DNA of 64,000 nucleotides from Spirochaetia bacterium (GCA_965203055.1 OZ241863.1:3936001-4000000); one strand, 5' to 3'; shown: positions 24,292 to 51,826, counted from the first letter of the stretch. Notes: a model not told the origin generated them from the sequence alone. A program made the numbers and translations.

Positions 24292-25077
24292 TTACGCGGC
24301 GCCGGCAGCCGCCCGACTCCGATCGCGGTAGTGAACCCGCCGCGTTCCGTCGAACGAGATGCGCGGCCAATCGCGGTCCCAGTTCTCGGAGCCGCGGGGG
24401 ATGTAGTGGCACGCCAGCGCGTGGCGGGGCGTCCCGGGGCGCAGCACCGCGGCGCCGCCGTGGATCAGCCGGCCGTGGAACAGCACCACGTCTCCCCGAT
24501 CCACCAGCACCTGCGCCTCGTCCTTCCCGTTCTGCCGAAAGACCTCCCGTACCAGGGGGAAGTAGCGTTCGCGCTGTTGCTGCCGGTAGGTCTCTCCCGC
24601 CCGCAGCGTATGCCGCGCGTCCTGCTTGGTGACGAGCCGGCCCCGGTGGGAACCGGGCTGGACCACCAGCGGGCCATTGCTCGCGTCGACGTCGACCATG
24701 GCGATCCACGCCGACATGCAATCGGGCAGGTAGTACTGGTCCTGGTGGAACGGATGCTCGGAACCCTCGAAGAAGTGCATCGTCTGAATCGCCTCCGGTT
24801 CGTCGCCGAAGCAATCCGCAAGCGGCTGACGCAGACGCGGATCGACCAGGAACTGCAGCGCGTGCGGATCATACCGATGCTGATTGAAGGTGCGGCTCCC
24901 GTAATCTTCCTGCTGAGAAAATCCGCTGATCCGCTTTCGTCCGCGGCGCAGATCATCCACGTGTTCGACGAATCTCCGGCACTCGTCCACCGAGAACACT
25001 CGCCGCAGTACGACGTAGCCGTCGTCCCGGTACTGCGCCCGCTGTTCCGGCGTCAAACCACCTCGCTCAGACCCCAT
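24292..25077 (-). CDS. phytanoyl-CoA dioxygenase (PhyH) family
   Basis: GGAGG SD; FHQD, NGPLVVQPGSH, LIHGG. Confidence 0.9.
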   Translation of the reverse strand: MGSERGGLTPEQRAQYRDDGYVVLRRVFSVDECRRFVEHVDDLRRGRKRISGFSQQEDYGSRTFNQHRYDPHALQFLVDPRLRQPLADCFGDEPEAIQTMHFFEGSEHPFHQDQYYLPDCMSAWIAMVDVDASNGPLVVQPGSHRGRLVTKQDARHTLRAGETYRQQQRERYFPLVREVFRQNGKDEAQVLVDRGDVVLFHGRLIHGGAAVLRPGTPRHALACHYIPRGSENWDRDWPRISFDGTRRVHYRDRSRAAAGAA

Positions 25078-26618
25078 AGCTCCTCCCTTCGCGCCATCAG
25101 CATGTCGTCCCTGTCAGCGACTCGTTTCTTTACCACCGGGACAGCCTGAGCCGCTGGCACAACCGGATTCAGGTATGCCAGGAGATCGCCGCGCGCTGCG
25201 TGTTCGCTCTCTGTTGCTCGCCACGTCTCCGACAGACACAGAAACCGGGCTCGTTTGAAGCGGCGTCCTGTCTTGTCCATATCTTCGGTTTCCTTGACGA
25301 ACAAGACGCTTTCGTCGGCGACCTGCTGAAACACCGCCGGCGAATGGGTGTTGACGATCACCTGACGGAGCGGGTTGTCGTCGCCAACGGACTCCTGAGT
25401 GTCGACCGCTATGTCAGACAACAGATCCAGAACCGCGGGGATTCGTGCAGGATGAATTCCATTCTCAGGTTCTTCCAGGCAGAGAACCCCTTGCATGGTC
25501 GGATCGCTTTCCATTATGGACAGTGCGAGGAACCGCAGCGTGCCGTCGGATAGTGCTCGGGCAGGATGCGGCGTACCGTCTCTGTCCTTTACGTAGAGCG
25601 TCATGAGCTCTCGCTTTTCGTCGAGATCGACGGAGATGTCATGTACGTCGTCGATCAATTCACGTAAACGGTTGGTAATCTGACTATAGGCTTGCTCCGT
25701 TCGCACTCCCGTGACGGAGGCCATACGGTTGCCGCCGCGCCGCTGCGGTCCGGAATTGCGCGCCAAGTGGTAGAGCGTCGCGGCCAGATGACGCCCGTCG
25801 GCTCCCAGATGGGTAGGAGAAACAAACGCGTCCGGCTGCCGCATGGCTGACGGTTCCAGTTGCACCAACCGCCATGACTCCATCTCCCGGCGCGCAACCA
25901 ATACCGTGGGGCTCTCGGCTGCATTGGCTACCGACAATACGGTGCGCGGCAGATTGGCGGCCGGCCGCCGCAACGGACGTCCGCTGCTGCCGCCATCCTG
26001 ATGCAGCTTTATGACTCTGCCTTCACCTTCTCCTTCTGTTGAAATAAAGTATTGCGCAGTTCGCCGTCCCGTCACTACGGACTTACGCCAATCTTTTGCG
26101 CTATGGGGAAACAGAAGATGTCGGGGCGCGTCCCGCTGCGCGACGTGGACCAACTCCTCTTTGACGATCTCAAGCGCACCTCGCTCCAGGTGATCATTCG
26201 ATTCCCGGTACGCGAGCTCAAGGGAGTAGCGCAAGAAGGTGATGCTCGCCCTGGCCTCCTGCCCCAGGTCATCGACCGCCTTCCCCGGCACGACCATCTC
26301 CGCCTCGAAGGCAATACGATCGGCATAGTGAGAACCGGTATGATGAAAGAGGTCCCTCACTTGCGTCGTGCGGCCGTGCTGGTCGCGCACCGAGATGGCG
26401 GCCTCCATGAGCGTGCGATTGGCCAGTGCGCTCAGAAACCGAATCGCGTCGAACAGATTCGACTTCCCGGCCCCATTCGGCCCGACTACGCAGGTAAACG
26501 AACCAAGGCGCAGATCAACGTCGACCAGATTCTTGAAACCGGAAACTTGCAGCCGAGTCAACACGAGCGGGGTTGTTCCTTCGCCGCGGATACTGTCGCC
26601 CTCGCGCGGCTCTGTCAA
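25053..26618 (-). CDS. ABC-type AAA ATPase (AAA_21-like); start possibly 26564
   Basis: GFKNL, GPNGAGKSN, LSDGTLRFL, LEEPENGIHP, NTHSP; lower GC. Confidence 0.88.
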   Translation of the reverse strand: MTEPREGDSIRGEGTTPLVLTRLQVSGFKNLVDVDLRLGSFTCVVGPNGAGKSNLFDAIRFLSALANRTLMEAAISVRDQHGRTTQVRDLFHHTGSHYADRIAFEAEMVVPGKAVDDLGQEARASITFLRYSLELAYRESNDHLERGALEIVKEELVHVAQRDAPRHLLFPHSAKDWRKSVVTGRRTAQYFISTEGEGEGRVIKLHQDGGSSGRPLRRPAANLPRTVLSVANAAESPTVLVARREMESWRLVQLEPSAMRQPDAFVSPTHLGADGRHLAATLYHLARNSGPQRRGGNRMASVTGVRTEQAYSQITNRLRELIDDVHDISVDLDEKRELMTLYVKDRDGTPHPARALSDGTLRFLALSIMESDPTMQGVLCLEEPENGIHPARIPAVLDLLSDIAVDTQESVGDDNPLRQVIVNTHSPAVFQQVADESVLFVKETEDMDKTGRRFKRARFLCLSETWRATESEHAARGDLLAYLNPVVPAAQAVPVVKKRVADRDDMLMARREELWGLSEVV

Positions 26619-27997: not shown

Positions 27998-28041
27998 AAG
28001 ACGGCCCGGCACCTATGCGGGAGTCGGCAAGAGTAACTTCG

Positions 28042-29037
28042 ATGATCACAGATAAAGCGCGCGCCCTGCGACGAACAATCGCCTCCGCCCTACTCAGTTG
28101 CGTGGCCATCACCGTGCTATTGGCCTGCGAAGAACCGGTAAGGCGGAGCGCGTCGGCACCCACGAAGCCAACCACGCCGACAACAACTCCGCCGGCGCAG
28201 AGTAACAATTGTGTGCCAAACGTGGCGATTCACAGCACGGCAACCGGAGGAGCAATCCAAGGAGCAATCAAAGACCAGGTTCTATACTGGGCAGGAACCC
28301 GATCAAACGTTGAATGCTTACCGGAAGCACAACAGAACCAGAAGCAATTGAATCGTGTCGGCAGCACGCACGAAGGAACGCCGACCTACCGAGTGATACG
28401 AGTACATCGAACCATCGGTACCCGGTATTACATGTTGAAGTATCTCAACGACATACCGGTATGCATCATCGACGTAACCGGCGCCTGCGACCGAATGTTA
28501 TCAGCATTAGGCAATTACGACATAGATGACCTACCGGATGAAGCACCGGCGCTTGATGGTTCAACAACGACGTCTGTACCGAGAGACTACTTGTTTACGC
28601 TGCGCTCCGACGACTTCACGGTCGTAGGAACCACACCGACGGCGGCAGCGATCGTCGACTACAAGATCGACGTTACGGCTGCCGACGTGAGGGACGGTGT
28701 GATAACGGCACAATTGCAGCGTTCAGCATCGGAAGGGACTTGGGAACCCTTCCCTTACACGATCAACGGCTTTGTTCCTCATACCGAGCCAAAACGTGCT
28801 GCTTCATTGACGTTGACCTACCAAGTATCGGCGGGATACGTGCGGCTCATAGCAACAGCTCACCTGACAGGAGCCGAAATGAGCCGCGCCCTTATCCTTT
28901 TCAACGACTTCAAGATTCGTATTCGGATCGTGCACTACCCCTGGACGATCCTTTGCCGGCACCCGTGGTTTCCTTGCAGCCGGCACGGTGGTACTTCGCC
29001 ACTGGGCGATCACGCCGGCGCCGCACCCGACCCGTAA
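28042..29037 (+). CDS. hypothetical lipoprotein
   Basis: Signal peptide with lipobox LLAC, T/P linker, lower GC. Confidence 0.7.
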   Translation: MITDKARALRRTIASALLSCVAITVLLACEEPVRRSASAPTKPTTPTTTPPAQSNNCVPNVAIHSTATGGAIQGAIKDQVLYWAGTRSNVECLPEAQQNQKQLNRVGSTHEGTPTYRVIRVHRTIGTRYYMLKYLNDIPVCIIDVTGACDRMLSALGNYDIDDLPDEAPALDGSTTTSVPRDYLFTLRSDDFTVVGTTPTAAAIVDYKIDVTAADVRDGVITAQLQRSASEGTWEPFPYTINGFVPHTEPKRAASLTLTYQVSAGYVRLIATAHLTGAEMSRALILFNDFKIRIRIVHYPWTILCRHPWFPCSRHGGTSPLGDHAGAAPDP

Positions 29038-29935: not shown

Positions 29936-30142
29936 GGCCGCAGCATGACCTACCGGCGCACGACGGCCAAGCCCCCTGCCCGCTGCCTCGGGCATGGTCC
30001 CGACGGACGGGAACTCACTCATTCGACCGTCCCGTCGGCCATACGGTAGCGGCACCGGGCACCGGGCAGCGATCGCCAACGGGATCGTCACCAGCAGCAC
30101 CCCACTTCGCTTGCATCACCCCCAACTGCTGCGGAGTGACCA

Positions 30143-30399
30143 TGGCCGCGCATAACCTACCGGCGGTACCGGCGGGAGGGGCTGCCGATCGGCAGTGGCA
30201 CGGTGGAGAGCACGTGCAAGAACATGGTGGCGGGGGATGATCTGGTCGTTGGGAGGGGCGCGGGGGATGCCGCAGATCTGCACCTCCGGTGAAGAGCGGG
30301 CGGTTCTAAAAGGGACTACGCGAACCTGCTGTCCGCCTCGGTGCCGCAGGAGGCCAGCCACAGGCCGCCTGACGCTACCTACGTTTTGGAAGTGCGCCC
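30143..30399 (+). mobile_element. degraded ISKra4/ISLre2-type transposase 3' remnant with probable right end
   Basis: TYRRYRREGLPIGSGTVESTCKNMVAG, then shifted GMIWSLGGARGM; ends CCTACGTTTTGGAAGTGCGCCC. Confidence 0.7.
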
Positions 30400-30418
30400 G
30401 CCCACCCACGCGGGCCTA

Positions 30419-30447
30419 TTGACAACACCTCAACCAAGAGATACCCT
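30419..30447 (+). promoter_or_regulatory. sigma70-type promoter for the helicase operon
   Basis: TTGACA-17 nt-TACCCT; GGAGG SD at 30484-30488. Confidence 0.6.
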
Positions 30448-30494
30448 ATCATACCAATCGTCCGCCCTCATATCTCAAGCAACGGAGGACACTC

Positions 30495-33400
30495 TTGGCC
30501 AATATGCAAGAAGTTTTTAGTCGAATGATAGTCGCCAACGATTTGACCTGTGTCGATCGAATAGACCTGCCAGAGCGCCCTCAACGACTCGCTACGATAC
30601 CCCAGCAATTCCGCTCTGGGGCTCCAGGTCGATGGCTGACAAATGACCAGAATATCAAAGGAACCCTGTGGTTACACCAAGCCAACGCAATGAGAGCCGC
30701 AGCTCACGGAAAAAATGTGATAATTTCAACTGGAACCGCATCCGGGAAATCGCTAATCTTTCAATCTGTAGCGCTACGTATCCTGGATACCGACGATGAT
30801 GCCGTGGTGCTCGTCTTCTACCCACTCAAGGCGCTCACAAATGACCAATTCATTTCATGGTGTACAGCTATCGAAATGGCAGGATTAGACCGCTCGTTAG
30901 TCGACAAAATAGACGGCACAGTACCTCGTAAAGAACGGACACCAAAGCTACGTAATGCGCGAGTGATACTAATGACTCCAGACGTCTGCCATGCATGGTT
31001 AATGCAGGAAATATCAAATCCTGACCATCAAGACTTCATTTCCAAACTTGCGTTGATTGTTATCGACGAATCACATGTTCTAGAGGGTGTGTTCGGCAGT
31101 AATTTTGCATATCTATTTCGACGTCTATGTGCGATTCGGTATCGTATTCTACACCATTTTAAGAAAAGACGTTCCTCTTTGCAAGTTATTGCCGCCAGTG
31201 CTACAATACGAGACCCTGAAAAACATCTTCATAACCTCACCGGAGTACAGTACGTTACGGTCGACGATTCCGATGACGGGTCACCACGTAAGGAACAAGC
31301 TATCGTCCATATTCAAGCGACAGAGCCATACAGCGAGTACGGTACTATATTGAGGAGATTGGTAACTGAGTCGGACTCCGGAAGTTGTATTATGTTTATT
31401 GACTCGCGCCAGGGCGCCGAACGTGTCGCCGTGCAAGCAGATCTTCCTAAACAAATACTGCCATACAGAAGTGGTTTTGAACGGGATGACCGTACCGCTA
31501 TCGAAAACGCGCTTCGGCAAGGTTCCCTTAGGGGAGTTGTCTCTACACCCGCACTAGAACTTGGAATTGATATCCGTCATTTTTCAGTAGGACTGAACGT
31601 CGGAGTACCGCGTTCACGTAAGTCGTTTCGTCAACGTCTAGGACGCGTCGGGCGTGTAGGACCAGGTGTATTTGGCATAATCGCCCCGACCTACGCGTTC
31701 AATCGTTTTGGCATGACCTTGATGGACTACTATCAAGAATCAGTTGAGCCTTCGTACCTGTATTTGCATAATCGGTTCATGCAGTACGCGCACGCGCGAT
31801 GTCTTGCAGAAGAGATGGAGATGCTCGGTATCGGTGGTCGTAAGAAGGTCCCCGCCCGAGTGTCATGGCCAGATGGTTTCAGTGAGAAGTTCGATTTCGC
31901 GTATGCCAGAAGTCCTGCGGCTCGGCCTCGGGTGTACGATCAGATGTTCAATATCGGCGGTGATCAACCACATTTCAACTATCCGTTGCGGAACATAGCC
32001 GAAGAAACTTTCACATTGGGGAGGGGTGGACCTGCGGGCAGCATTGTCCGTATTGAGCAGCTTTCGATACGACAAGCCGTCCGAGAGGCTTTTCCGGGGG
32101 CGATTTTTCTGAGTAAGGCTCATGGATGGCGTGTCCAGGAATGGAGAAATACCGCGTTTGAGCGTACGATTCGCGTGACTAAGACTTCACCTTTTCGGGT
32201 TCCAGAGCCTTACTTACGGACCTTTGTTAACTTCAGCTTGAATCGTGACAGTATTGTTGACGGTCACCTTCTATCGAGCGACAAGGGATTTCTTTCTGAG
32301 TGTAACTTACAGATCACGGAGCGAGTCGAAGGATATAAGGAGGGTAACAAATGGTTCCTTTATAAGGATCTCCGCCAAAGTAAGCACGGGATGACTCCAA
32401 AGACCCGTGATTTTCGTACTACTGGTGTTGTACTACGGGTGAACGAATCGTGGTTTAAGAAGGAAGTCAAGAGCTCGGTTGCAGACGCGCTTTTGGGCCT
32501 CCTTCAGCGCGAGTACAGCATATCACCCGATGACGCAGCCTGTGTTGCGACGGACGTTTCAGAGATACGGCAAGGACGACGTCATTCGCTGACCGACGCG
32601 ATCGTAATCTTCGACTCCACTCATGGAAGCTTGCGGTTGACCGAGTTAGTGTATGCCAAGTTCGAACATTTGTTGTATCTTCTCGCCCGGTCGACCGAAA
32701 TGACAGCGCCTAACGAGCATCTTCTTTCGCCGGACATGGTCCGACGTATGAGAAATTGGTTCGATCGACTCAAGAAGATAGCAGATTCAGAACTGGCCGA
32801 TCTCGGAACCACAGATGAGGCGGTACCGGAAGGCTGGCTGCACGTGTTTGAGGTAGGTAGCGTCGTAGCCTACAGGGATTCCAAGGACGTAGCAAGAGAC
32901 ATCACGATCACCGGCCGTCAATTGATGCAGATGGATGATCGATTGCATTTAGTGTACACCTATCAGGGTAACGGGTTTATTGCTTCCATTCCTGCGGAGC
33001 GGATCGACGCTGTCGGTGACGACTGGAACATGGTCTATTGGAATCCCCAGACGGACGAATCCCGTGATTCGTTCGACGAATCTCCTTCACCTGCCGTTCA
33101 CGACAACCTCGGCCCGAGCCCTTACATCGTCGGAAATCCGATTGATCAGGAGAGGATGTTCTTTGGCCGCGCCTCAATCATGGACAATATCAAGCGACAG
33201 CTTGGAAGCAGTGACCACGCCAATGTAGTCCTTCTTGAAGGGAACCGGCGTACTGGTAAGACGTCGATCCTCCGGCAGTTAAGCAAGAAGGACGTACTTC
33301 CCGGTTGGGTGCCAGTATACTGTTCGCTTCAGAATGTCGATAGCATCGCCACTCGCGACGTATTCAGATTGCTGGTATTACGAATCGGTTGGACCCTCGC

Positions 33401-34334
33401 TGAAATCGGCATTGAAACCTGGATGCCCGACCTACCGCAGCGTCGCTCCGGTCAACCGTTCAAGTTGGCCTTCCGCTCCGCGGTCAGCCGCGCTATTGCA
33501 GGAGGTCATCCCTTCGAAACGTTGGAGCTTTATCTTTCGACTGCGATAGAGCAAGCTAAACCACGCCGACTCTTGCTGATGCTCGACGAATTCGACAAGC
33601 TACAGGAGGGTATTGACAGTGGGATCACGAGCCAACAGGTTCCCGAAAACATCCGCCACCTCTTGCAACACCAGCCAGGTCTTGGTGCAATCCTAACCGG
33701 GTCCCGCCGTCTGAAGAGGCTGCGTGAAGAATACTGGTCGGCGCTATTCGGTTTCGGTTATCGGATTGGTGTCAGCGCACTACCACGAGTGGAAGCCCAA
33801 CGACTTGTCACTGATCCGGTAGTCGGGAAGCTCAAGTATGACCCACGAGCCCGTGACCGCTTAGTAGAGCTATGCGCGTGTCACCCATTTCTCGTCCAGT
33901 CGCTCTGCAGCCGGGTGTTTGACCAAGCGGCGACCGGAGGAACCCGAGCGATCACCCTCGACATGGTCGAACATGCGGCAGTGGAGATGGTGCAGGACAA
34001 CGAACACTTCCACACGTTATGGGGCTACGCCGGGACCGAACGGCGCCGGCTCATCCTCTCGTTATGTGCATCGATGACGAATGGAACCTACGCCGTAAGC
34101 TTACACCAACTCAAGACCAAATTTCACGAGAATGGAATATCAAATTTTGGGGACGACGATCTTACCGACGACATTACCGAGCTCCGCGAACTGGAGATGC
34201 TCGACTTTGACGAATCTTCCAACGGAGGCACGTATCGATTGTCCGTACCTTTGATGGCTATGTGGATGGAAGCGAACGTCGGCTTCCACGACTTGCTGAC
34301 ACGAGTCTTACGGGGAAATGGTCCAAGTGAATAA
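30495..34334 (+). CDS. DEAH-box helicase (MrfA/DUF1998-like) fused to a C-terminal STAND-like ATPase
   Basis: LWLHQ, TGTASGKS, YPLKALTNDQ, DESH, SAT, ALELGID, QRLGRVGR; then PYIVGNPI, FFGR, GNRRTGKTS, LMLDEFD, CHPFLVQ. Confidence 0.88.
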   Translation: MANMQEVFSRMIVANDLTCVDRIDLPERPQRLATIPQQFRSGAPGRWLTNDQNIKGTLWLHQANAMRAAAHGKNVIISTGTASGKSLIFQSVALRILDTDDDAVVLVFYPLKALTNDQFISWCTAIEMAGLDRSLVDKIDGTVPRKERTPKLRNARVILMTPDVCHAWLMQEISNPDHQDFISKLALIVIDESHVLEGVFGSNFAYLFRRLCAIRYRILHHFKKRRSSLQVIAASATIRDPEKHLHNLTGVQYVTVDDSDDGSPRKEQAIVHIQATEPYSEYGTILRRLVTESDSGSCIMFIDSRQGAERVAVQADLPKQILPYRSGFERDDRTAIENALRQGSLRGVVSTPALELGIDIRHFSVGLNVGVPRSRKSFRQRLGRVGRVGPGVFGIIAPTYAFNRFGMTLMDYYQESVEPSYLYLHNRFMQYAHARCLAEEMEMLGIGGRKKVPARVSWPDGFSEKFDFAYARSPAARPRVYDQMFNIGGDQPHFNYPLRNIAEETFTLGRGGPAGSIVRIEQLSIRQAVREAFPGAIFLSKAHGWRVQEWRNTAFERTIRVTKTSPFRVPEPYLRTFVNFSLNRDSIVDGHLLSSDKGFLSECNLQITERVEGYKEGNKWFLYKDLRQSKHGMTPKTRDFRTTGVVLRVNESWFKKEVKSSVADALLGLLQREYSISPDDAACVATDVSEIRQGRRHSLTDAIVIFDSTHGSLRLTELVYAKFEHLLYLLARSTEMTAPNEHLLSPDMVRRMRNWFDRLKKIADSELADLGTTDEAVPEGWLHVFEVGSVVAYRDSKDVARDITITGRQLMQMDDRLHLVYTYQGNGFIASIPAERIDAVGDDWNMVYWNPQTDESRDSFDESPSPAVHDNLGPSPYIVGNPIDQERMFFGRASIMDNIKRQLGSSDHANVVLLEGNRRTGKTSILRQLSKKDVLPGWVPVYCSLQNVDSIATRDVFRLLVLRIGWTLAEIGIETWMPDLPQRRSGQPFKLAFRSAVSRAIAGGHPFETLELYLSTAIEQAKPRRLLLMLDEFDKLQEGIDSGITSQQVPENIRHLLQHQPGLGAILTGSRRLKRLREEYWSALFGFGYRIGVSALPRVEAQRLVTDPVVGKLKYDPRARDRLVELCACHPFLVQSLCSRVFDQAATGGTRAITLDMVEHAAVEMVQDNEHFHTLWGYAGTERRRLILSLCASMTNGTYAVSLHQLKTKFHENGISNFGDDDLTDDITELRELEMLDFDESSNGGTYRLSVPLMAMWMEANVGFHDLLTRVLRGNGPSE

Positions 34335-35928
34335 AACCAATCCATATCGAGTCATGGGACCTTCAATCCCGCTCATGCTGGGACGACGGCACCTCATGCG
34401 AGTAATCGATAAGCATTTGCAGAAGTCGGAACCGGATCACGTGTCGGTTGTGGGACCCGCGCATTTCGGGAAATCCGTCCTGTTGAGGCACGTGGCCACC
34501 TCCTATCGCGCGAAGCCAAGCGGCTATCTGACGACCGTGCACATCGATCTGCGGCACGGTATACCTACTTCGGACAAGGATTTCATGCGACGATTGGCAG
34601 ATGAAATCAAGACTCAGTTGCAGGAGTTCTATCCACAGATTGCGGAGCTGATAGATCTCGAAGATGAAGCCATACACGAAATTTTGGGGCTTGTGTTCGA
34701 AGATCTTGAAAGAAAAGGCCAGCGGCTACTTGTCGTGCTCGACGGTTTCGACTACGCACTTGCCGGTAGTGATTTGACACGCAATCTCTGGGACCAGCTC
34801 CGTACGTTGGCGCAAAGTGTCAGTCTTCGATTAGTCGCGGGAAGTCGCCTCCCGTTGCGGGAACTGTGCAAGAATGAGGATTCCAAGACCTCCGATTTCT
34901 GGGAAATATTCTATGATACACCACTCCGAGTAGCCGCTCTTGATGACGATGACATGGCGGCCTTTTTGCTGCCGTTATTCAACGAAGGCTGCGAATTCGA
35001 TACTTCGGCACGCAAGGAAATCATCAACTGGACGGGAGGTGCTCCGCTACTAGTCTGTGCTTTGCTGCAGACGCTGTGGGAGGACCACCGGGGTAGTCGG
35101 CTTTCCAAGCTGGAGATTGACCAGGCCGCGAAGTCTCAGTTGATCGAGCGGCGCCATCTTCTGGGCGCACTCTGGGATGATTGCGATGATAAGATAAAGG
35201 CTGACCTGAGCATACTGTGCGACCGTGACATACCCTTGACCGATCTGCCTGAGTGGCGACGCCGATCTGTGGAAGAACGAGGGTTCGGCCGCGTGTCGGG
35301 TAACCGTCTACGAAGTTCTTGCCGTCTCATGGAGCGCTATGCTCAAGCGCAGGCTCCGGCCATCGCCGACCTGACCCGTCTTCTGGGAACGGCTGTCGGC
35401 TTCGAGACTCACATTCGATCTCTGCTGGATCTCCGGCTTGCGCAGGTACCGATTGGAGCGGATGATGAACTCTGCGAATGTGTCAGAAACGCCATTCACG
35501 CCCTCGCGCCATGGCCGGGAGGCGCGCTTGTTTGGGTCAGAAGTATCGCCAACCGGGCGCTGAGGCTTGTCTGGGACGCTGAACTTCCACCTGACAGAAC
35601 GGTACCTTCAAGGTGGCGTAACGAGGCGCGTAACGCAGGTGTGAATTTTCCCGACCAGGATAAGCTGCCGCGCGAGTACGGCGCGCAGCTCAGCATCCTG
35701 CGGTTCGCGACAGGAACGCGACGTACGTCGCGTCAAGTCAGGTACATCACTAAGACGACTTTTTTGCTGCTGGATTACTTGCTTTCGGTTGGCGATTTCG
35801 GCCAACACCGAGACGGCTTCCCCGAGACAAAGGTCACCATCGGTTTCGCGACGGCCGTCGTACTTGCCGCCATTTCGCTTGTAGAGTGTTTAACCGATGA
35901 TCTCCAACGACCTGTGGGTAACGAATGA
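34318..35928 (+). CDS. STAND-like ATP-binding protein with degenerate Walker B
   Basis: NPY..MLGR, GPAHFGKS, VVLDGFD, TGGAPLLV; overlaps the helicase stop. Confidence 0.82.
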   Translation: MVQVNKTNPYRVMGPSIPLMLGRRHLMRVIDKHLQKSEPDHVSVVGPAHFGKSVLLRHVATSYRAKPSGYLTTVHIDLRHGIPTSDKDFMRRLADEIKTQLQEFYPQIAELIDLEDEAIHEILGLVFEDLERKGQRLLVVLDGFDYALAGSDLTRNLWDQLRTLAQSVSLRLVAGSRLPLRELCKNEDSKTSDFWEIFYDTPLRVAALDDDDMAAFLLPLFNEGCEFDTSARKEIINWTGGAPLLVCALLQTLWEDHRGSRLSKLEIDQAAKSQLIERRHLLGALWDDCDDKIKADLSILCDRDIPLTDLPEWRRRSVEERGFGRVSGNRLRSSCRLMERYAQAQAPAIADLTRLLGTAVGFETHIRSLLDLRLAQVPIGADDELCECVRNAIHALAPWPGGALVWVRSIANRALRLVWDAELPPDRTVPSRWRNEARNAGVNFPDQDKLPREYGAQLSILRFATGTRRTSRQVRYITKTTFLLLDYLLSVGDFGQHRDGFPETKVTIGFATAVVLAAISLVECLTDDLQRPVGNE

Positions 35929-36791
35929 CGAAGCCGGCGCCGGACGGGTTGTGGATTGACGGGGCTGCCGCGGCCTATCCCGAGGGTCTGTACCGCTTCG
36001 CCGGCGTGGCGGACGGGGTGACCGGGTTCGCTGCCGCGAGCGCGGGCGCCGTGGCTCACTTTCGGCGCCATGGCTACTTGGTGATTCACCGCGCCTTTAC
36101 CGGGCAGGAAACGGCGCGCGCCCTGGACGAGATGCTGGAGCTGCTCGCCCGCCCGCAGCCGGCGTTCAGCGGCGTGCAGTTCGAGCACTCGGCGCCGCAG
36201 GGGAAGCTGGCGGCGCTGGCGCCGGAGCTGCGCCAGGACTACGTCCGCAAGTTCTTCAACTTCCTCGAGTTCGCGCCGCGCTTGAAGGCGCTGTCCGAGC
36301 ATCCCGAGTTGCTGGCCGTCGTCAGCCGCCTCATCGGCGCGGCGCCGGCGCTGTTTCAGGACATGGCCCTGCTCAAGCCGCCCCGCATCGGGCGCGAGAA
36401 GCCGTGGCATCAGGATCACGCCTACTTCGACCTGCCGCTGGATACGCCGGTGGTGGGGGTGTGGATCGCCCTCGACCGCGCCACCACCGACAACGGCTGC
36501 ATGACCATCATCCCCGGCTCCCACCGCCGCGGCCCGGTGGTCCACTTCCAGCGCCGCGACTGGCAGATCTGCGACCGTCACGTGGACAACCGCGGCGCCC
36601 TGGCGGTGCCGCTGGAGCCGGGCGGCTGCCTGCTGTTCTCCAGCCTGCTGCACCACGGCACGCCCACCAACACCGCCGCCCGGCGCCGCCGCGCCCTGCA
36701 GTTCCATTACGCGCCCGCGGGCGCGGCGCGCATCGGCAAGGAACAGCGCATGGCCGTCTTCGGCGCCGAAGGCAAGTCGGTCACCTGCTGA
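35925..36791 (+). CDS. phytanoyl-CoA dioxygenase (PhyH) family
   Basis: PWHQDHAY, NGCMTIIPGSH, LHHGT. Confidence 0.9.
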   Translation: MTKPAPDGLWIDGAAAAYPEGLYRFAGVADGVTGFAAASAGAVAHFRRHGYLVIHRAFTGQETARALDEMLELLARPQPAFSGVQFEHSAPQGKLAALAPELRQDYVRKFFNFLEFAPRLKALSEHPELLAVVSRLIGAAPALFQDMALLKPPRIGREKPWHQDHAYFDLPLDTPVVGVWIALDRATTDNGCMTIIPGSHRRGPVVHFQRRDWQICDRHVDNRGALAVPLEPGGCLLFSSLLHHGTPTNTAARRRRALQFHYAPAGAARIGKEQRMAVFGAEGKSVTC

Positions 36792-36932
36792 CTGCTCGCC
36801 GGCGCGGTCCGGGCGCCGGCGGTCCGGGGCGGGGGCGCGCGGGGCCGCAGTCGTGCCATACTCAGGACCCGCGGCGCGCGGCCGGCACGCCGCATTACGC
36901 ACCATAAGGCCGTTTGAGGAGGAACCAGCGCC

Positions 36933-38309
36933 ATGCTGCCGCACATCGACGATCTGAAAGTGGTACTGCTGCACGTCATCGACGACCGCGCCGCGCGCGG
37001 CTACGACGTAACCGGACTGCGCGAACGGGTGCAGGCAGTGACCTTCAGCTACGACGAGCTGGCCGCCCTGCACCGGGAGCTGGACGCGGCGCCGCGCCGC
37101 GCGGACTGGCCCTACGTGGAGCCGGAGGACCTGGAGGCGATCTGGGCCGAGTGTCCTGAGCTGCCGGAAGATCCGCTGCAGCAGGTCGACCCGGAGGCGG
37201 CCGGCGAGCGCGCGCAAGCCGGATTCCTGGGGTCGGTGTGCGGTTGCGTGTTGGGCAAGCCGGTGGAGGTGCGCACCACCATGGCGGCGCTGCGGCGCGC
37301 CGCCGAGGCCGCCGGCGAGTGGCCGCTGCAGGACTATCTGAGCGAGGGGCTGCTCGACGCCCTGGGCGACCGCCACCGGAGCTGGCGGGAGGCGGCGCGC
37401 GGCCGCATCCGCTTCGTCGCCCGCGACGACGACATCAACTACACCGTGCTGGGGATGCTGATCCTGGAGCAGTACGGCATCGGCTTCAGCCGCGCGGACG
37501 TGATGCGGATGTGGCTGGCCAACCTGCCGCTCGGCTACACGTTCGGCCCGGAACGGATGCTGCTGACGCGCACTTCGGCGGCGGGAATCGCCGCCCGGCT
37601 GCGCCGCGGCCGCGGGCTGGCGGGGATCGGGGATGACCCGGAGCCGGTACTGGCGAAGCTGGTGGCGAGCTGGAACCCGGGCGACGAACTGTGCGGCGCG
37701 CAGATCCGCGCCGACGCCTACGGGTACGCCTGCGCCGGGCGCCCGCGGCTGGCCGCGGCGCTCGCCTGGCGTGACGCCGGCTGGACTCACCGCGCCACCG
37801 GCGTCTACGCCGCCATGTTCACGGCCGCGGCCATCGCCGGGGCCTACGTCATCGACGATCCGCTGGAGCTGTGCCGCATGGCGCTGCGCTGCGTGCCGCG
37901 GCGCAGCCGCTTCCATGAGCGGGTCAGCGACTGCCTCGACCAGGTCGCGCAGGCCGCGGACTGGCACGACGGCTACCGCCGCATCCACGACCGCTACGGG
38001 TGTTACGGCCACTGTCAGGTCTATCAGGAGACCGGCACCCTCATCAACACGCTGCGCTTCGCCGACGGGGTGGAAGAGGGCATCTGCCTGCAGGTGAGCC
38101 AGGGCAACGACACCGACAGCTACGGCGCCACCGCCGGTTCCCTGTTGGGCGTATTGTACGGCCGCCCCCCGGAGCAGCGCTGGCTGGCGCCCTTCAACGA
38201 CGAGCTGCGCACCACCGTGGCCGGCCTCTACGAAGCCTCCCTGACCAAGGTGGCGCAACGGATGGGGCGGCTGCCGCGGCTGGCGGCCGCGCAACTCGCC
38301 GGGCGCTGA
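36933..38309 (+). CDS. ADP-ribosylglycohydrolase family protein
   Basis: GAGGAGG SD; DDDINYT, GAQIRAD, GNDTDSYGATAGS. Confidence 0.9.
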   Translation: MLPHIDDLKVVLLHVIDDRAARGYDVTGLRERVQAVTFSYDELAALHRELDAAPRRADWPYVEPEDLEAIWAECPELPEDPLQQVDPEAAGERAQAGFLGSVCGCVLGKPVEVRTTMAALRRAAEAAGEWPLQDYLSEGLLDALGDRHRSWREAARGRIRFVARDDDINYTVLGMLILEQYGIGFSRADVMRMWLANLPLGYTFGPERMLLTRTSAAGIAARLRRGRGLAGIGDDPEPVLAKLVASWNPGDELCGAQIRADAYGYACAGRPRLAAALAWRDAGWTHRATGVYAAMFTAAAIAGAYVIDDPLELCRMALRCVPRRSRFHERVSDCLDQVAQAADWHDGYRRIHDRYGCYGHCQVYQETGTLINTLRFADGVEEGICLQVSQGNDTDSYGATAGSLLGVLYGRPPEQRWLAPFNDELRTTVAGLYEASLTKVAQRMGRLPRLAAAQLAGR

Positions 38310-38361
38310 AACGGCGCGACGGGGCGCGGCGGGCGCCTGCCGCGCCCACGCGGTAACGGAA

Positions 38362-39954
38362 ATGCGTTTCTTCAACACCGCCGGGCCGATGCAACCGGAC
38401 GCCCACTACTGCATCCCGCCGTTGAGCCGGCTGGACGAGGACGAGGTGCGCACCCTGATCCGGCAGCAGCGCTACTTCGTGCTGCACGCGCCGCGCCAGA
38501 CCGGCAAGACCTCCGCCCTGCTGGCGCTCACCGACGAACTGAACGTCGGCGGCGCCTACCGCTGCCTCTACGTCAACGTCGAGAGCGGCCAGTCCGCGCG
38601 CGAAGACGTCGGCGCCGCCATGCGCGCCATCCTCAACGAACTGGCCGGCGAGGCGCGCATCGTCCTGGACGACCCGTTCCCGGCGCAGATCTGGCCGGAG
38701 ACGCTGGAACGCGCCGGGCCGCACAACTGCCTGCGCGAAGTGCTGAGCCGCTGGGCGGCGGCCGACCGCAAACCGCTGGTGCTGCTGATCGACGAGATCG
38801 ACGCGCTGGTCGGCGACACCCTGATCGCGGCGCTGCGCCAACTGCACACCGGCTACGCGCGGCGCCCGCGGCACTTTCCGCAGAGCGTGATCCTGTGCGG
38901 GGTGCGCGACGTGCGCGACTACCGCATCCGTTCGAGCAGCGAAAACGCCGTGATCACCGGCGGCAGCGCCTTCAACGTCAAGGCCGAGTCGCTGCGGTTG
39001 GGGGATTTTTCAGCAACCGAGGTGCGCGCCTTGCTCGCCCAGTACACTGCGGAAGCCGGCCAGCCGTGGACCGACACCGCCCTGGAGACGGTGTGGGAGC
39101 TGACCGCCGGCCAGCCGTGGCTGGTGAACGCCCTGGCCCACGAGGCGTGCGACCGCGACGCGGCCGGCCGCGACCGCAGCCGCCCGCTCACCGCGGACGC
39201 CATCCACGCCGCCCGCGAGCAGCTCATCCTGCGCCGCGACACCCACCTGGACCAGCTTGCCGACAAGCTGCAGGAAGAGCGCGTGCACCGGGTGATCGCC
39301 CCGCTGCTGAGCGGACAGGCGACCACCGAGATGCGCCCGGACGACCTGCAGTACGTACGCGACCTGGGCCTCGCGGCCCGTGACGATCCGGTCCGCATCG
39401 CCAACCCGATCTACCGCGAGGTGATCCCGCGCGACCTGACCTGGACCACTCAGGCGGCCTTCACGCACGACCCGGCGTGGTACGTGGACGCCGCCGGCAA
39501 CCTGCGGCTCAGCGAGCTGCTGGCCGCGTTCCGGGAGTTCTTTCGCGAACACTCCGAGCACTGGATCGAGCGGTTTCAGTACCGCGAAGCCGGCCCGCAG
39601 TTGCTGTTGCAGGCGTTCCTGCAGCGCATCGTCAACAGCGGCGGGCGCATCGAACGCGAGTACGGCCTGGGCCGGATGCGCACCGACCTGCTGATCGTCT
39701 GGCCGGCCGCAGCGCCGCCCGGGCGCACCCGCCGGATGGTGATCGAGTGCAAGCTGCTGCACCGCAGCCTGGAGCGGACCATCCGCGAAGGGCTCGCCCA
39801 GACCCGCGCCTACCTGGACCGCTGCGGCGCCGGCGAGGGGCACCTGGTGATCTTCGACCGCAGCGCGGACAAGCCGTGGGAGCAGAACCTGTTCCGCCGC
39901 ACAGCACCCGCATCCGCCGCCGCCGGCCCGCCGATCACCGTGTGGGGTATGTAG
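38362..39954 (+). CDS. AAA-like ATPase with C-terminal PD-(D/E)xK nuclease-like domain
   Basis: FFNTAGP, APRQTGKTS, LIDEID; EREY..GRMRTDL..VIECK. Confidence 0.88.
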   Translation: MRFFNTAGPMQPDAHYCIPPLSRLDEDEVRTLIRQQRYFVLHAPRQTGKTSALLALTDELNVGGAYRCLYVNVESGQSAREDVGAAMRAILNELAGEARIVLDDPFPAQIWPETLERAGPHNCLREVLSRWAAADRKPLVLLIDEIDALVGDTLIAALRQLHTGYARRPRHFPQSVILCGVRDVRDYRIRSSSENAVITGGSAFNVKAESLRLGDFSATEVRALLAQYTAEAGQPWTDTALETVWELTAGQPWLVNALAHEACDRDAAGRDRSRPLTADAIHAAREQLILRRDTHLDQLADKLQEERVHRVIAPLLSGQATTEMRPDDLQYVRDLGLAARDDPVRIANPIYREVIPRDLTWTTQAAFTHDPAWYVDAAGNLRLSELLAAFREFFREHSEHWIERFQYREAGPQLLLQAFLQRIVNSGGRIEREYGLGRMRTDLLIVWPAAAPPGRTRRMVIECKLLHRSLERTIREGLAQTRAYLDRCGAGEGHLVIFDRSADKPWEQNLFRRTAPASAAAGPPITVWGM

Positions 39955-40978: not shown

Positions 40979-41962
40979 TTGGCGGCAGCGCGGCCTCAGT
41001 ACGGCAACGGCAGGCGCAGCTTCACGCGCGACCTGCTCCGGCGCCTGTTTCGCGAGCGCCCGCTGGGCGCGTGGTGCGGCGTGGTGGTGCTCCTGCTGTG
41101 CTTCACCGCCGCGTTCGCGGGCCGGCTGGCGCCGTTTCCGTTCAGCGAGATCCACCTGATCGACCGGTTGTCGGGCTCGACTTCCACCTACCTGTTCGGT
41201 ACCGACCAGCTCGGCCGCGACCTGCTCAGCCGGCTCATGTACGGCGCCCGTCTGTCGCTCGGCGTGGGCATCTCGGCCACCGCGCTCAGTCTGGTGGTAT
41301 CGCTGCTGGTCGGCGGCGTCAGCGGCTTCGTGGGCGGCAAGCTGGACCTTGCGATCCAGCGCTTGGTCGACGCTTGGCTGTCGTTCCCCTCGCTCCTGCT
41401 GCTGCTGACCGTGCTGTCGATCCTGGGCCGCGGCGTCCCGCAGATCATCCTGGTCCTCGGCGTCTCGGCCGGCATCGGCAACTCGCGGGTAGTGCGCAGC
41501 GCCGTCATCGCCATCAAGGGCCACCCCTACTTCGAGGCGGCGCGGGCCATCGGCAGCTCGCAGGCGCGTACCCTGCTGCGCCACGTGTGGCCCAACATCA
41601 CCGCGCCCATCATCGTGATCTTCTCCATTACCGTCGGCGGCGTCATCATCTCGGAGGCATCGCTCAGCTTCCTCGGCTTCGGCCTGCCCCCGGACGTACC
41701 GAGCTGGGGCGCCATGTTGAGTCACGAGGGGCGCAAGTACATGGAGGTGTCGCCGCGCTTGGCGATGCTGCCGGGGTTGGCGCTGACCGTCGTCGTCTAC
41801 TGCCTCAACATGCTCGGCGACGCGCTGCGCGATCTGCTCGATCCGCGGCTGCGCGGCGCCGGCGGGGCGGCCAGCGGCGCCGGCAGCTACGGCGCGCGCG
41901 CCGCCCGCGACGTCACTCGCGCCCTGCAGCGCGCGGAGACGCGCGCCGGGAAGGCGGGTTAG
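40979..41962 (+). CDS. peptide/nickel ABC transporter permease (DppC-like)
   Basis: FGTDQLGRD, EASLSFLGFG, GDALRDLLDPR. Confidence 0.92.
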   Translation: MAAARPQYGNGRRSFTRDLLRRLFRERPLGAWCGVVVLLLCFTAAFAGRLAPFPFSEIHLIDRLSGSTSTYLFGTDQLGRDLLSRLMYGARLSLGVGISATALSLVVSLLVGGVSGFVGGKLDLAIQRLVDAWLSFPSLLLLLTVLSILGRGVPQIILVLGVSAGIGNSRVVRSAVIAIKGHPYFEAARAIGSSQARTLLRHVWPNITAPIIVIFSITVGGVIISEASLSFLGFGLPPDVPSWGAMLSHEGRKYMEVSPRLAMLPGLALTVVVYCLNMLGDALRDLLDPRLRGAGGAASGAGSYGARAARDVTRALQRAETRAGKAG

Positions 41963-50512: not shown

Positions 50513-51826
50513 ATGCTAATCAGTTTTTCGGTCACGAACTGGATGTCCTTCCGGGACCGGGTTACCCTGTCGATGGTCGCGAGCCGCGAGCGCCAGCACG
50601 GCCGGCGGGTGGCGCGTCTTGGCCGGTACCAGATGAGGGTGCTGCCCATCATGGCGCTCTACGGTGGCAACGCGTCGGGCAAGACCAATCTCGTCAAGGC
50701 GCTGTCCTTCGCCAAGACCCGGATCGTCGAAGGTTCGGCGCCGGGCGGCCGCATCCCGGTAATTCCCTTTCTGCTGGACAATGACTGCGCGCAACAGCCA
50801 TCGCGCTTCGAATTCGAGATTCTGATAGCGGGGTGCGTCTACGCGCTCAGCTTCTCGGTAACCGGAGAGAAGGTGATCGAGGAACGGTTGGTGAGAGTCG
50901 GCAGCACCAGCGAGCGAACACTCTACGCCCGCCGGCACGGGGACTACATTTTCGATAGAACCTTGAGAGAGAATCTGTTTCTCGAGTACCTCCGGCGCGG
51001 TACCCGCGACAATCAGCTCTTTTTGACCAACTCAGTATCACAGAACGTAGAGAACTTCAAGGACATCTACAATTGGTTCAATGACAACTTGCAGATAATT
51101 ACTCCCGAAACTCGGTACGGACTGCCGTCGTTCTATGAAAATAGCAGCGTCGCCGACAAGATGAACGAGATGTTGCTCAACTTCGATACCGGGATTTCCC
51201 GGATGGACAGCGAGCGGCTACCGGCTGAATACCTCAAACTTCCGGCGCCGGTCAATAAAAGATTACAGGATGAGATTAGCGAAGGGAAAAGCGTACATTT
51301 GGCAGGTCCATCCAATCAGTACCTGAAGATGACTCGCGAGAACGGTGACCTCGTAGCCAGCAAATGCGTGACCGTGCACCGGATGACCGATGGCACGGAA
51401 ACCCACTTCGAAGTAGCGCAGGAGTCGGACGGATCACAGCGGTTCATCGATCTCCTGCCCGCGTTTATCGATCTTTCGTCCGGTCATTCAGAGCGGGTCT
51501 ACGTCATCGACGAGATGGACCGCAGCCTGCATACCTTGCTCACTCGAAGGCTGCTTGAACACTATCTGGCGGCCTGTACCCCCAGAATCCGAGCACAACT
51601 GCTGTTCACGACCCATGACGTGCTGCTGATGGACCAACGCTGGTTGCGCCGCGACGAAATGTGGGTAACGGAGCGGGACACTTCCGGCGCTTCGAGCCTG
51701 CTGTCGTTCAGCGAATACCGCGATGTCCGCTACGACAAAGATATACGCAAGAGCTATCTGCAAGGCCGGCTGGGCGGTATTCCCCGTATCAACCCGACGG
51801 AGTCGGTTCACGTTGGCGCGGAATAG
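50513..51826 (+). CDS. RloA/AbiLi-like ABC-type ATPase (AAA_21)
   Basis: NWMSFRD, GGNASGKTN, ESDGSQR, IDEMDRSLH, FTTHD, YLQGRLGG. Confidence 0.9.
   Translation: MLISFSVTNWMSFRDRVTLSMVASRERQHGRRVARLGRYQMRVLPIMALYGGNASGKTNLVKALSFAKTRIVEGSAPGGRIPVIPFLLDNDCAQQPSRFEFEILIAGCVYALSFSVTGEKVIEERLVRVGSTSERTLYARRHGDYIFDRTLRENLFLEYLRRGTRDNQLFLTNSVSQNVENFKDIYNWFNDNLQIITPETRYGLPSFYENSSVADKMNEMLLNFDTGISRMDSERLPAEYLKLPAPVNKRLQDEISEGKSVHLAGPSNQYLKMTRENGDLVASKCVTVHRMTDGTETHFEVAQESDGSQRFIDLLPAFIDLSSGHSERVYVIDEMDRSLHTLLTRRLLEHYLAACTPRIRAQLLFTTHDVLLMDQRWLRRDEMWVTERDTSGASSLLSFSEYRDVRYDKDIRKSYLQGRLGGIPRINPTESVHVGAE

Follow-up and report, generated by a model that had tools for sequence, protein, structure and literature searches.

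A two-gene cassette joining a YprA/MrfA-like helicase to a conserved pair of STAND/ORC-type ATPases: a candidate defence-type module in a Spirochaetia bacterium

Organization of the cassette

We analysed a 64,000-nucleotide stretch of DNA from a Spirochaetia bacterium (GCA_965203055.1 OZ241863.1:3936001-4000000; hereafter the window, numbered from its first letter), in which a sequence-only reading had pointed to a candidate new defence system at 30419-35928. Two plus-strand open reading frames (ORFs) fill 30495-35928. Gene 1 (30495-34334, 1279 aa, TTG start), delimited by its ORF and by full-length homologues, encodes a YprA/MrfA-like helicase fused to an ATPase domain, which we term ATPase A. 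Gene 2 (34318-35928, 536 aa, ATG at 34318), delimited by its ORF and by 547 homologues, encodes a second ATPase, termed ATPase B, and its start sits 17 nt inside gene 1, giving a 17-nt ORF overlap; the sequence-only reading had already described an overlap with the gene 1 stop. The comparisons below support the view that A and B are a conserved, coupled pair of paralogous ATPases of the STAND/ORC type (signal transduction ATPases with numerous domains/origin recognition complex), with D-E in Walker B of the one and D-G in that of the other. Homology searches, alignments and models were computed from sequence, and PADLOC was used in version 2.0.

The cassette is horizontally acquired. Its GC content is low, as noted earlier, at 0.47-0.56 over 30.5-35.5 kb vs 0.65-0.73 on either side, and climbs back directly past the gene 2 stop. 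A Shine-Dalgarno-like GGAGG (30484-30488, plus strand), also noted earlier, lies 6 nt ahead of the gene 1 TTG. The promoter proposed for the cassette fared less well: the TTGACA hexamer taken as its -35 box is present (30419-30424, plus strand), but a consensus scan called no sigma-70 promoter at 30419, and the hexamer 17 nt downstream of TTGACA is TACCCT. No sigma-54-like motif was found in 30000-30495 with up to 2 mismatches permitted. Upstream, a 50-aa plus-strand frame (30140-30289) resembles the C-terminal end of an ISKra4-type transposase and is a possible insertion sequence (IS) relic. For the relic suggested earlier, tblastn against proteins annotated as ISKra4 transposases gave only weak matches (E 0.01-0.5), and a Pfam scan of the frame returned none.

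The helicase module of gene 1

All features of the cassette described below lie on the plus strand. The N-terminal part of gene 1 contains a superfamily 2 (SF2) DExH motor comprising RecA1 and RecA2 (residues 57-441, 30663-31817), assigned from Pfam, the MrfA structure 6znp and the invariant DExH motif. Pfam matched DEAD at residues 61-239 (2.8e-23) and Helicase_C at residues 285-389 (1.9e-13), and the closest Protein Data Bank (PDB) sequence was MrfA/YprA (6znp, 6.6e-32, residues 57-441), in agreement with the complete SF2 DEAH motor of MrfA/Hrq1 type read from the sequence earlier. The NCBIfam model TIGR03817 matched the motor only (4.5e-59; 200 bits, well under its 874-bit cut-off). PADLOC matches likewise spanned the motor only (SngC, 3.9e-30; BrxHI, PsyrT, DpdF, Cas3, DruE and DrmA). 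In an alignment of helicase-family sequences, the DExH residues D191, E192 and H194 and the motif VI residues Q380, R381, G383, R384, G386 and R387 were invariant in 27/27, and the Walker A residues G80-S86 were nearly so; because of this conservation, the helicase looks active.

The motor is followed by a helical domain and a beta-rich, MrfA-like "canopy" (OB/connector/DUF1998-like) that lacks a 4-Cys site (residues ~442-780, 31818-32834; assigned from an AlphaFold2 (AF2) model and Foldseek). The AF2 model of residues 400-1279 was built from a 52-row alignment and had a predicted local distance difference test score (pLDDT) of 81.4. Foldseek aligned it to MrfA (6znp_A) over 302 columns (E 4e-10, root-mean-square deviation 6.0, TM 0.25), and because of this alignment the canopy after RecA2 appears, as modelled, to be MrfA-like. 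Pfam detected no DUF1998 or MZB domain in gene 1, and matched MZB in 1 of 27 helicase-family members only (E 0.0078). The DUF1998-like tail claimed earlier is a possible structural resemblance that Pfam does not detect. Residues 700-860 contain a single Cys, and no Cys there is invariant across the 27 sequences; the 4-Cys zinc cluster is therefore absent, as the sequence-only reading had it.

A small all-beta domain closes the helicase module (residues ~782-857, 32838-33065, from model secondary structure). This region is also covered by stand-alone helicase homologues of ~865 aa, of which there are hundreds (40-71% identity). A distant cultured example of the stand-alone form, from Thermomicrobium roseum, had uninformative neighbours and no conserved partners. 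A tblastn search of plasmids with the helicase returned distant matches only (at most 32% identity).

ATPase A

The C-terminal part of gene 1 is an ORC/Cdc6-STAND-type nucleoside triphosphatase (NTPase) with helical and winged-helix domains (residues 871-1279, 33105-34331; Pfam, Foldseek and alignment). Similarity to the methylase-fused relatives described below begins at 33105 (gene 1 residue 871), close to the start at about 33110 that had been given for a second P-loop domain. Walker A (GNRRTGKTS), Walker B (LMLDEFD), a GSRR motif, a DNEHF motif and the winged-helix end are invariant or nearly so in 26 sequences, with D171-E172 invariant in 26/26. The protein stops after the winged helix and has no C-terminal repeat sensor (TPR/LRR/WD40).

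Pfam matched AAA_22 with 27.3 bits (cut-off 27) and AAA_16 with 28.9 bits (cut-off 32.6). The best Foldseek matches were ORC2 (1w5t, 9e-13), PABY2304 (2qen, 2.3e-11, TM 0.72), SSO1545 (2fna) and Cdc6/ORC1, with CED-4 and plant nucleotide-binding leucine-rich-repeat proteins (NLRs) at lower rank. A PADLOC scan of the A domain gave 0 matches, including to Avs/STAND and BrxC/BrxB-type models.

ATPase B

Residues 1-334 of gene 2 (34318-35319) form a STAND-type NTPase module, assigned from Pfam AAA_16, the AF2 model (pLDDT 85.7), Foldseek and invariant columns. Its motifs are Walker A GPAHFGKS, Walker B VVLDGFD and GGAP. AAA_16 scored 37.4 bits, over its cut-off; scores of the gene products against Pfam nSTAND3/5/6, NACHT and NB-ARC were all under cut-off. 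Foldseek matched 2qen, Cdc6, Avs3 (8dgc), NRC2/3, ORC2, CED-4 and Apaf-1. D142-G143-x-D145 of B is invariant in 39/39 aligned sequences, where A has D-E-F-D. The earlier remark that B lacks the catalytic Glu is right; that B is a pseudo-ATPase, as it was also called, can only be presumed, with the Walker A residues G51-K52 intact. PADLOC gave a weak match of B to STAND_TPR (E 0.0011) and a match to mad8 on the P-loop (E 0.0051).

The remainder of B (residues 335-536, 35320-35925) is an all-alpha domain in the AF2 model, with a G-x-x-G-Q-H motif in the alignment (G492, G495, Q496 and H497 invariant). The earlier description of a helical C-terminal domain outside known families agrees with this model and with the searches of the Atlas, PDB and Pfam given below. 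Foldseek with the whole B model returned ATPase-domain matches only. The idea that the domain is DUF4145/HEPN-like was dropped, with a match in 1 of 23 members (E 0.06).

A search for homologues of B found 547 at E<=1e-3, the best 120 of which were 56-97% identical and 449-579 aa long. Gene 2 had no match in 50,697 phage records, and the 3 plasmid records that matched were all of the hsdR/methylase type.

Paralogy and predicted complex of A and B

A and B are paralogous (hhalign probability 97.4%, E 1.3e-11, 277 columns), which bears out the earlier description of gene 2 as a related ATPase. Complex modelling of the two gene products had been proposed as a check. The A:B complex, predicted from our own alignments (26 rows for A, 39 for B), had an ipSAE of 0.82 (median of three runs) vs 0.00 for the best of three controls. 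Among 157 solved complexes, 116 reach the 0.82 mark, as do only 2 among 215 mismatched pairs, a comparison that is rough only, since our own alignments were used. The runs shared at least 83% of contacts, with partner pLDDT of at least 82.

The predicted interface runs through the nucleotide site of A. On the A side it comprises the N-terminal SPYIVGNP segment, the Walker A/B face (58-63, 172, 175) and the DNEH motif (308-311); on the B side it comprises helix 156-166 and segment 193-204, both invariant or nearly so. A and B are thus predicted to form a heterodimer, with B seated on the catalytic site of A.

Recurrence of the fusion and the wider ATPase family

Full-length fused homologues of gene 1 fall into five clusters (P0003-P0007, 1259-1282 aa), with 73-94% identity over 98-100% of the protein. 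The same fused gene (72-74% identity), followed by B, is present in a Spirochaetia metagenome-assembled genome (MAG; locus L001). The sequence-only reading had allowed that the fusion might be unique to this assembly; because it recurs in P0003-P0007 and L001, the helicase-A fusion is judged not to be an assembly artefact. In a tblastx comparison of the window with L001, similarity runs from 30495 to ~35928 and then ends, and the flanks are unrelated; the only other match above 50 bits was weak (window 41444-41722, 33% identity, E 5e-24). Similarity is limited to the two genes, which therefore form the transferred unit.

To find homologues that keep both genes together, species-representative genomes were scanned with a 25-sequence gene 2 alignment. 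The scan yielded 51 loci (L001-L051), all from MAGs, belonging to Spirochaetia, Gammaproteobacteria, Acidobacteriota, Planctomycetota, Latescibacterota, Binatia, Gemmatimonadota, Chloroflexota, Myxococcota and Desulfobacteraceae. An A domain lies immediately upstream of B in 45 of the 51; those without an A match are three short contigs (L027, L031, L038), a degraded copy (L048) and L033/L034. The family is marked by an A-type domain (GNRRTGKTS, LDEFDKLQEGID, DNEHF) whose gene immediately precedes that of a B-type protein (GPAHYGKS, LDGFD, TSDFWE, GxFGQH); the cassette has this arrangement, with gene order and overlap the same as in the relatives. ATPase A of the relatives is 51-74% identical to that of the window, and ATPase B 43-68%, with B ~60% identical over at least 10 phyla.

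The helicase part is present in only one of the 51 loci (L001). In 39 of the 45 loci with A, this domain makes up the last ~410 aa of an ORF that is 1236-1486 aa long. The sequence-only reading had proposed a search for other effectors fused to this ATPase pair, and one head prevailed: an N-terminal N6_Mtase domain was found in all 32 scanned A-bearing ORFs (of 38 without the helicase), accompanied by Methylase_S in 9. PADLOC matched these methylase-A heads to type I methylase and type I specificity subunits. The helicase takes the place of the N6 methylase and specificity head in the window and 6 relatives.

Protein searches gave a similar picture. An exhaustive search with an A-domain profile gave 9954 representatives (50%-identity clusters) at E<=1e-3, of which 1136 passed E<=1e-30. 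Local BLASTP, used to class the top 150, put 131 down as methylase-type, 1 as helicase-type (P0005) and 18 as neither, 16 of these being under 700 aa. By our own count, the best 120 matches in a search of proteins of 703-2239 aa with the A domain comprised 106 with N6_Mtase, 6 with helicase domains and 8 with AAA domains only. A type-I-like methylase and specificity head is, on these counts, the norm for the ATPase pair, and the helicase is a rare replacement. The earlier picture of a stand-alone architecture built around a helicase effector is not borne out, the methylase head being usual.

A quick IQ-TREE search with 47 A domains placed the 7 helicase-fused sequences in one clade (Shimodaira-Hasegawa approximate likelihood ratio test, SH-aLRT, 100), nested in a 24-row clade (SH-aLRT 99) of methylase-fused sequences from Spirochaetia, Chloroflexota and Bryobacterales. 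The simplest reading of this nesting is that a methylase-specificity head was replaced once by a YprA-like helicase.

One MAG holds two different methylase-type copies (L025 and L026). L033/L034 (7980-10240) encode distant B homologues (43% identical) with no A upstream, and a gene for an Rce1-like CAAX (CPBP/Abi-type) membrane protease, possibly an alternative ATPase partner, overlaps the B stop.

Genomic context of the relatives

The defence-type context proposed earlier was found for the relatives, in the form of restriction-modification (R-M) and CARF-regulator neighbourhoods. Type I genes, hsdR (with an EcoEI-type C-terminus), hsdM and often hsdS, lie directly upstream on the same strand in 12 of the 51 loci, with 2 more partial cases. 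An RtcR-like sigma-54 activator with CARF, NtrC and helix-turn-helix (HTH) parts (PADLOC RtcR_PspF2, 4.9e-201) is encoded at full length in 17 of the 51 loci and as fragments in 4 more. The full-length gene is upstream in 16 of the 17, once with an IS between, and downstream in L041.

In 10 loci, the brief stretch ahead of the methylase-A gene has an exact sigma-54 -24/-12 motif (TGGCAC-N5-TTGC) on its coding strand, between that gene and the RtcR-like one (L002, L008, L012, L016, L018 at 4173-4187, L024, L025, L047, L048 and L049). In the 53 loci scanned there were 14 exact matches vs ~2 expected by our own arithmetic, which ignores base composition. This arrangement suggests signal-induced expression of a restriction-like operon in the relatives. 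RtcR-like CARF/NtrC proteins are frequently tied to R-M systems, with sigma-54-dependent activation predicted (Makarova et al. 2014, PMC4012209); the passages of that paper on the subject do not describe the ATPase pair.

A plasmid of Acinetobacter ursingii (NZ_MH220285.1, L053, 726-11548) carries overlapping hsdR, methylase-A and B genes. Its HsdR is canonical (HSDR_N, ResIII, EcoEI_R_C), its methylase-A protein has 1323 aa with an A domain 45% identical to that of the window (5e-113), and its B is 31.6% identical (6e-69). This plasmid was the only example found in a cultured organism; a WYL-domain gene lies upstream and an IS5 transposase just downstream.

Further defence-like genes were seen beside methylase-type modules. 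Beside the module in L043, 9639-16097 encodes a 1791-aa nSTAND1/NACHT protein and RhuM; beside that in L008, 10764-15314 encodes a 1516-aa GHKL-ATPase/ResIII helicase fusion. In L019, 10232-14068 encodes a GHKL ATPase and, after it, a protein that joins an RNA polymerase alpha-CTD domain to a sigma-70 region 4 domain.

Neighbourhood of the cassette in the window

Right after the cassette (35925-39954, plus strand) are genes for a PhyH dioxygenase, whose ATG overlaps the gene 2 TGA, an ADP-ribosylglycohydrolase (36933-38309) and a 530-aa AAA_22/AAA_35 ATPase (38362-39954). The last was considered as a paralogue of gene 2 and rejected (BLASTP E 0.2); it also had no PADLOC match. The surroundings of the cassette yielded no genes of a mobile element, such as integrase or partition genes.

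PADLOC identified two defence-type loci in the window. A HEC-01A-like gene (25056-26618, minus strand; candidate-system protein, 7.3e-102), 4 kb upstream of the cassette, encodes a 521-aa AAA_21/AAA_15 ABC-type ATPase; the adjacent ORF (24295-25077, minus strand) had no PADLOC match, so that no HEC-01B partner was found. The second locus, 15 kb downstream, is an AbiLi-like (3.3e-78) and AbiLii-like (2.5e-24) pair (50513-52427, plus strand). The other scanned ORFs of the window had no PADLOC match save weak HEAT-repeat matches in one ORF. A 340-aa ORF at 28015-29037 (plus strand) lies in a second GC dip (0.56) and had no Pfam or PADLOC match.

Interpretation and alternative explanations

The computations show a conserved pair of genes, a head that was swapped once, two paralogous ATPases with a predicted interface, and relatives set in R-M and CARF/sigma-54 contexts. 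From these results we infer a defence role, a sensing partner, asymmetric hydrolysis and helicase action on a target. We propose that the cassette is a candidate defence-type module in which an A:B STAND/ORC switch controls a YprA-like helicase head, a proposal whose chances of being right and of being wrong we put about level.

At the core of such a module, two paralogous NTPases of the STAND/ORC type would join as a heterodimer or a larger hetero-oligomer engaged in nucleic-acid surveillance, probably against phage. A, with D-E in Walker B, would hold the catalytic site, and B, with D-G and an intact P-loop, would dock on it as a regulatory, slow or non-hydrolysing partner. Input, or the binding of a partner, would most plausibly fall to the C-terminal helical domain of B. 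At its N-terminus A would bear an exchangeable DNA-handling head, in nearly every relative a type-I-like N6-adenine methylase with specificity domain and here a YprA/MrfA-type single-stranded DNA translocase. Nucleotide-dependent assembly of A and B, whether on DNA or once B has sensed a trigger, might license the helicase head for foreign DNA. Intermediates of replication or recombination might then be unwound or stripped by the head, which might also supply a nuclease whose gene lies elsewhere.

Several results weigh against this proposal. Pfam, PADLOC and NCBIfam recognised in the cassette neither a nuclease nor any other effector that would kill or block. The methylase head of the parent family is no obvious effector, so that the sensor-to-effector logic may be wrong; it sits poorly with a STAND pair driving an effector, and suits a DNA-reading, BREX-like or type-I-like complex at least as well. 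For the C-terminal domain of B, the putative input part, an Atlas feature search with residues 335-536 gave no usable match, a 23-sequence profile gave 0 matches against PDB sequences at E<=10, and Pfam gave nothing significant on the 23 members at E<=5. The complex score may partly reflect likeness to solved assemblies of the ORC/Cdc6/RFC type, and the tree comes from a quick search only.

The surroundings of the helicase form also count on this side. The immediate neighbours of the cassette are metabolic (RraA-like, PhyH, ADP-ribosylglycohydrolase), the nearest defence-type genes are 4 and 15 kb off, and in the L001 flanks PADLOC matched 0 of 5 ORFs. A tblastn search of the 64 kb with HsdR/M/S from L019 found no match, and the window gave no RtcR-like or methylase match either. 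With no RtcR-like gene, sigma-54 motif or hsd gene in the window, the regulation and partners of the relatives do not, therefore, transfer to the cassette. Of the defence-island context raised by the sequence-only reading, the window shows the HEC-01A-like and AbiLi/AbiLii genes, and the immediate neighbours and the L001 flanks add nothing to it; defence-island support for the helicase form is modest, and most support comes from the relatives.

The main alternative is that A and B, rather than being a sensor switch, form a scaffold that binds DNA with the use of ATP, as ORC or BrxC would, within an R-M-like machine of type I or BREX character. Helicase-A would be its motor subunit (cf. HsdR/BrxH) and would cooperate with a methylase-type A/B module, or with some other modification system, encoded elsewhere in the genome. 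The best structural matches of A are ORC2, Cdc6 and ORC1 with winged helix, most relatives have methylase and specificity heads, some of them behind hsdR-hsdM-hsdS or hsdR alone, and the presence of L025 and L026 in one MAG indicates that paralogous modules can mix within a genome. BREX-type systems also join an ORC ATPase, an inactive STAND protein, an N6 methylase and a helicase, according to passages of PMC12839542. However, there is no methylase, hsd gene or second A/B pair in the 64-kb window or in the 17.6 kb of L001, the similarity between the two covers only two genes, as for a self-contained unit, and neither A nor B had a PADLOC match of the BrxC/BrxB type. We consider a scaffold of this kind doubtful, though a serious contender.

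Two further explanations were weighed. The cassette could, with no link to immunity, encode a MrfA-like repair or replication-restart helicase and an ATPase dedicated to loading or regulating it. In replication, helicases are loaded by ATPases of the ORC/Cdc6 type, the nearest solved relative of the helicase is the repair helicase MrfA, and its stand-alone homologues of ~865 aa number in the hundreds, the cultured one inspected being without conserved partners. One main YprA branch consists of repair-related helicases without conserved context (PMC12458937). A repair role is nonetheless unlikely, given that the family of the ATPase pair is otherwise joined to restriction-type methylases and CARF regulators, that the cassette has low GC, a possible adjoining IS fragment and unrelated flanks in two genomes, and that the fused form is rare (1 of the 150 best representatives). 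An ORC/Cdc6-like fold joined to a helicase, in a low-GC segment adjoining a transposase-like fragment, would also suit an initiator pair and helicase serving the replication or maintenance of a mobile element. This is very improbable: no integrase, partition or other element genes surround the cassette, similarity to L001 ends at the two genes, the relatives carry methylases rather than helicases, and gene 2 had 0 matches in the 50,697 phage records and only hsdR/methylase-type matches in the 3 plasmid records.

If the proposed defence-type switch is carried further, A/B may be a hitherto unrecognised, general-purpose, two-subunit STAND immune licensing module, one subunit catalytic and one regulatory, into which varied DNA enzymes are plugged. 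In most lineages this would be a sequence-reading methylase whose transcription is turned on via sigma-54 by an infection signal that CARF senses; in the present clade it would be a modification-independent YprA helicase attacking invading DNA directly, with no nuclease. We advance this extension only tentatively, as less likely than not. If true, it would mean a new defence-system family of more than 1000 clusters at 50% identity, with a logic unlike that of R-M or Avs. The head swap itself, from methylase to YprA helicase, is a natural experiment that marks the pair as a portable control unit rather than a methylase accessory, and the cassette offers a minimal two-gene construct for probing the function of the pair. 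Should the link to CARF/sigma-54 activators and their matching promoters be confirmed, it would exemplify a restriction-like system whose expression a signal induces. If the cassette proves to be a repair helicase and its loader, the finding is an ordinary one.

Comparison with known systems

The closest known counterpart of the helicase is MrfA/YprA from Bacillus subtilis (6znp), which shares the DExH SF2 motor; the region after RecA2 aligns to it structurally over 302 columns, at TM 0.25. Unlike it, gene 1 has no 4-Cys cluster and no detected MZB, and carries in addition a small beta domain and, at its C-terminus, a STAND/ORC ATPase. The main text of a survey of YprA proteins (PMC12458937) makes no mention of AAA, P-loop or ORC, and contains "STAND" only within "standard"; it reports loss of the 4-Cys site in Dpd helicases. 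This loss is shared between gene 1 and Dpd, and helicases of the same superfamily are the core of DISARM (DrmA/DrmB), Druantia (DruE), Dpd (DpdF/DpdJ) and ARMADA. None of the partner genes DrmB/C/MI, DruA-D, the dpd cluster or BrxHII-like with PglX-like was found among the window ORFs by PADLOC or Pfam. Identity with DISARM, Druantia, Dpd, Shango or BREX was rejected, the PADLOC matches being limited to the motor. MADS (mad1-8, with MAD6, MAD7 and MAD8 mandatory in the model of its authors) was likewise rejected, the only match being that of mad8 to the P-loop of B (E 0.0051).

The pair recalls STAND proteins of immunity in several respects. With Avs it shares a core of nucleotide-binding, helical and winged-helix domains (Foldseek match to Avs3, 8dgc), a fold that does not separate STAND from ORC/Cdc6. 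As in Avs and paired NLRs, an enzyme head precedes the ATPase in A and a domain of another kind follows the ATPase in B, and an active and a degenerate ATPase side by side recall sensor/helper NLR pairs such as NAIP/NLRC4. Unlike Avs and NLRs, A and B lack TPR, LRR and WD repeats, and head and tail are split between two proteins. A also had no PADLOC Avs/STAND match, its best matches being ORC/Cdc6 and the archaeal PF01637-type proteins 2qen and 2fna.

BREX and related systems combine an ORC/Cdc6-type ATPase, an inactive STAND protein, an N6 methylase and a helicase, and BrxB is described as lacking Walker motifs (both from passages of PMC12839542). On that partial account, the cassette and its relatives resemble BREX (BrxC, BrxB, PglX, with or without BrxH) and DUF499-centred systems in having an ORC ATPase, a degenerate STAND-like protein, a methylase (in the relatives) and an SF2 helicase; they differ in that B keeps Walker A, unlike BrxB, and in that the enzyme heads are fused to the ATPase. 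PADLOC found no match to BrxC/DUF499, a PglX-type methylase, PglZ or BrxA in A, B or the window ORFs. Type I R-M systems differ in that HsdR/M/S were not matched in the window; they are present in 12 (and 2 partial) of the 51 related loci.

The sequence-only reading did not recognise the locus as a named system, and in keeping with this PADLOC has no model for either ATPase, and a literature search found no description of the A/B pair. The nearest relatives are the unnamed methylase family, in which an N6 methylase, specificity and A protein is followed by B. The cassette shares its ATPases, gene order and overlap, and the helicase forms are nested inside it; it differs in that the window has a helicase head and no CARF activator, sigma-54 promoter or hsd genes. 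STAND/ORC ATPases with restriction-type enzymes are a known kind of combination; the architecture read from the sequence earlier is real, but within that far bigger family it is an uncommon branch.

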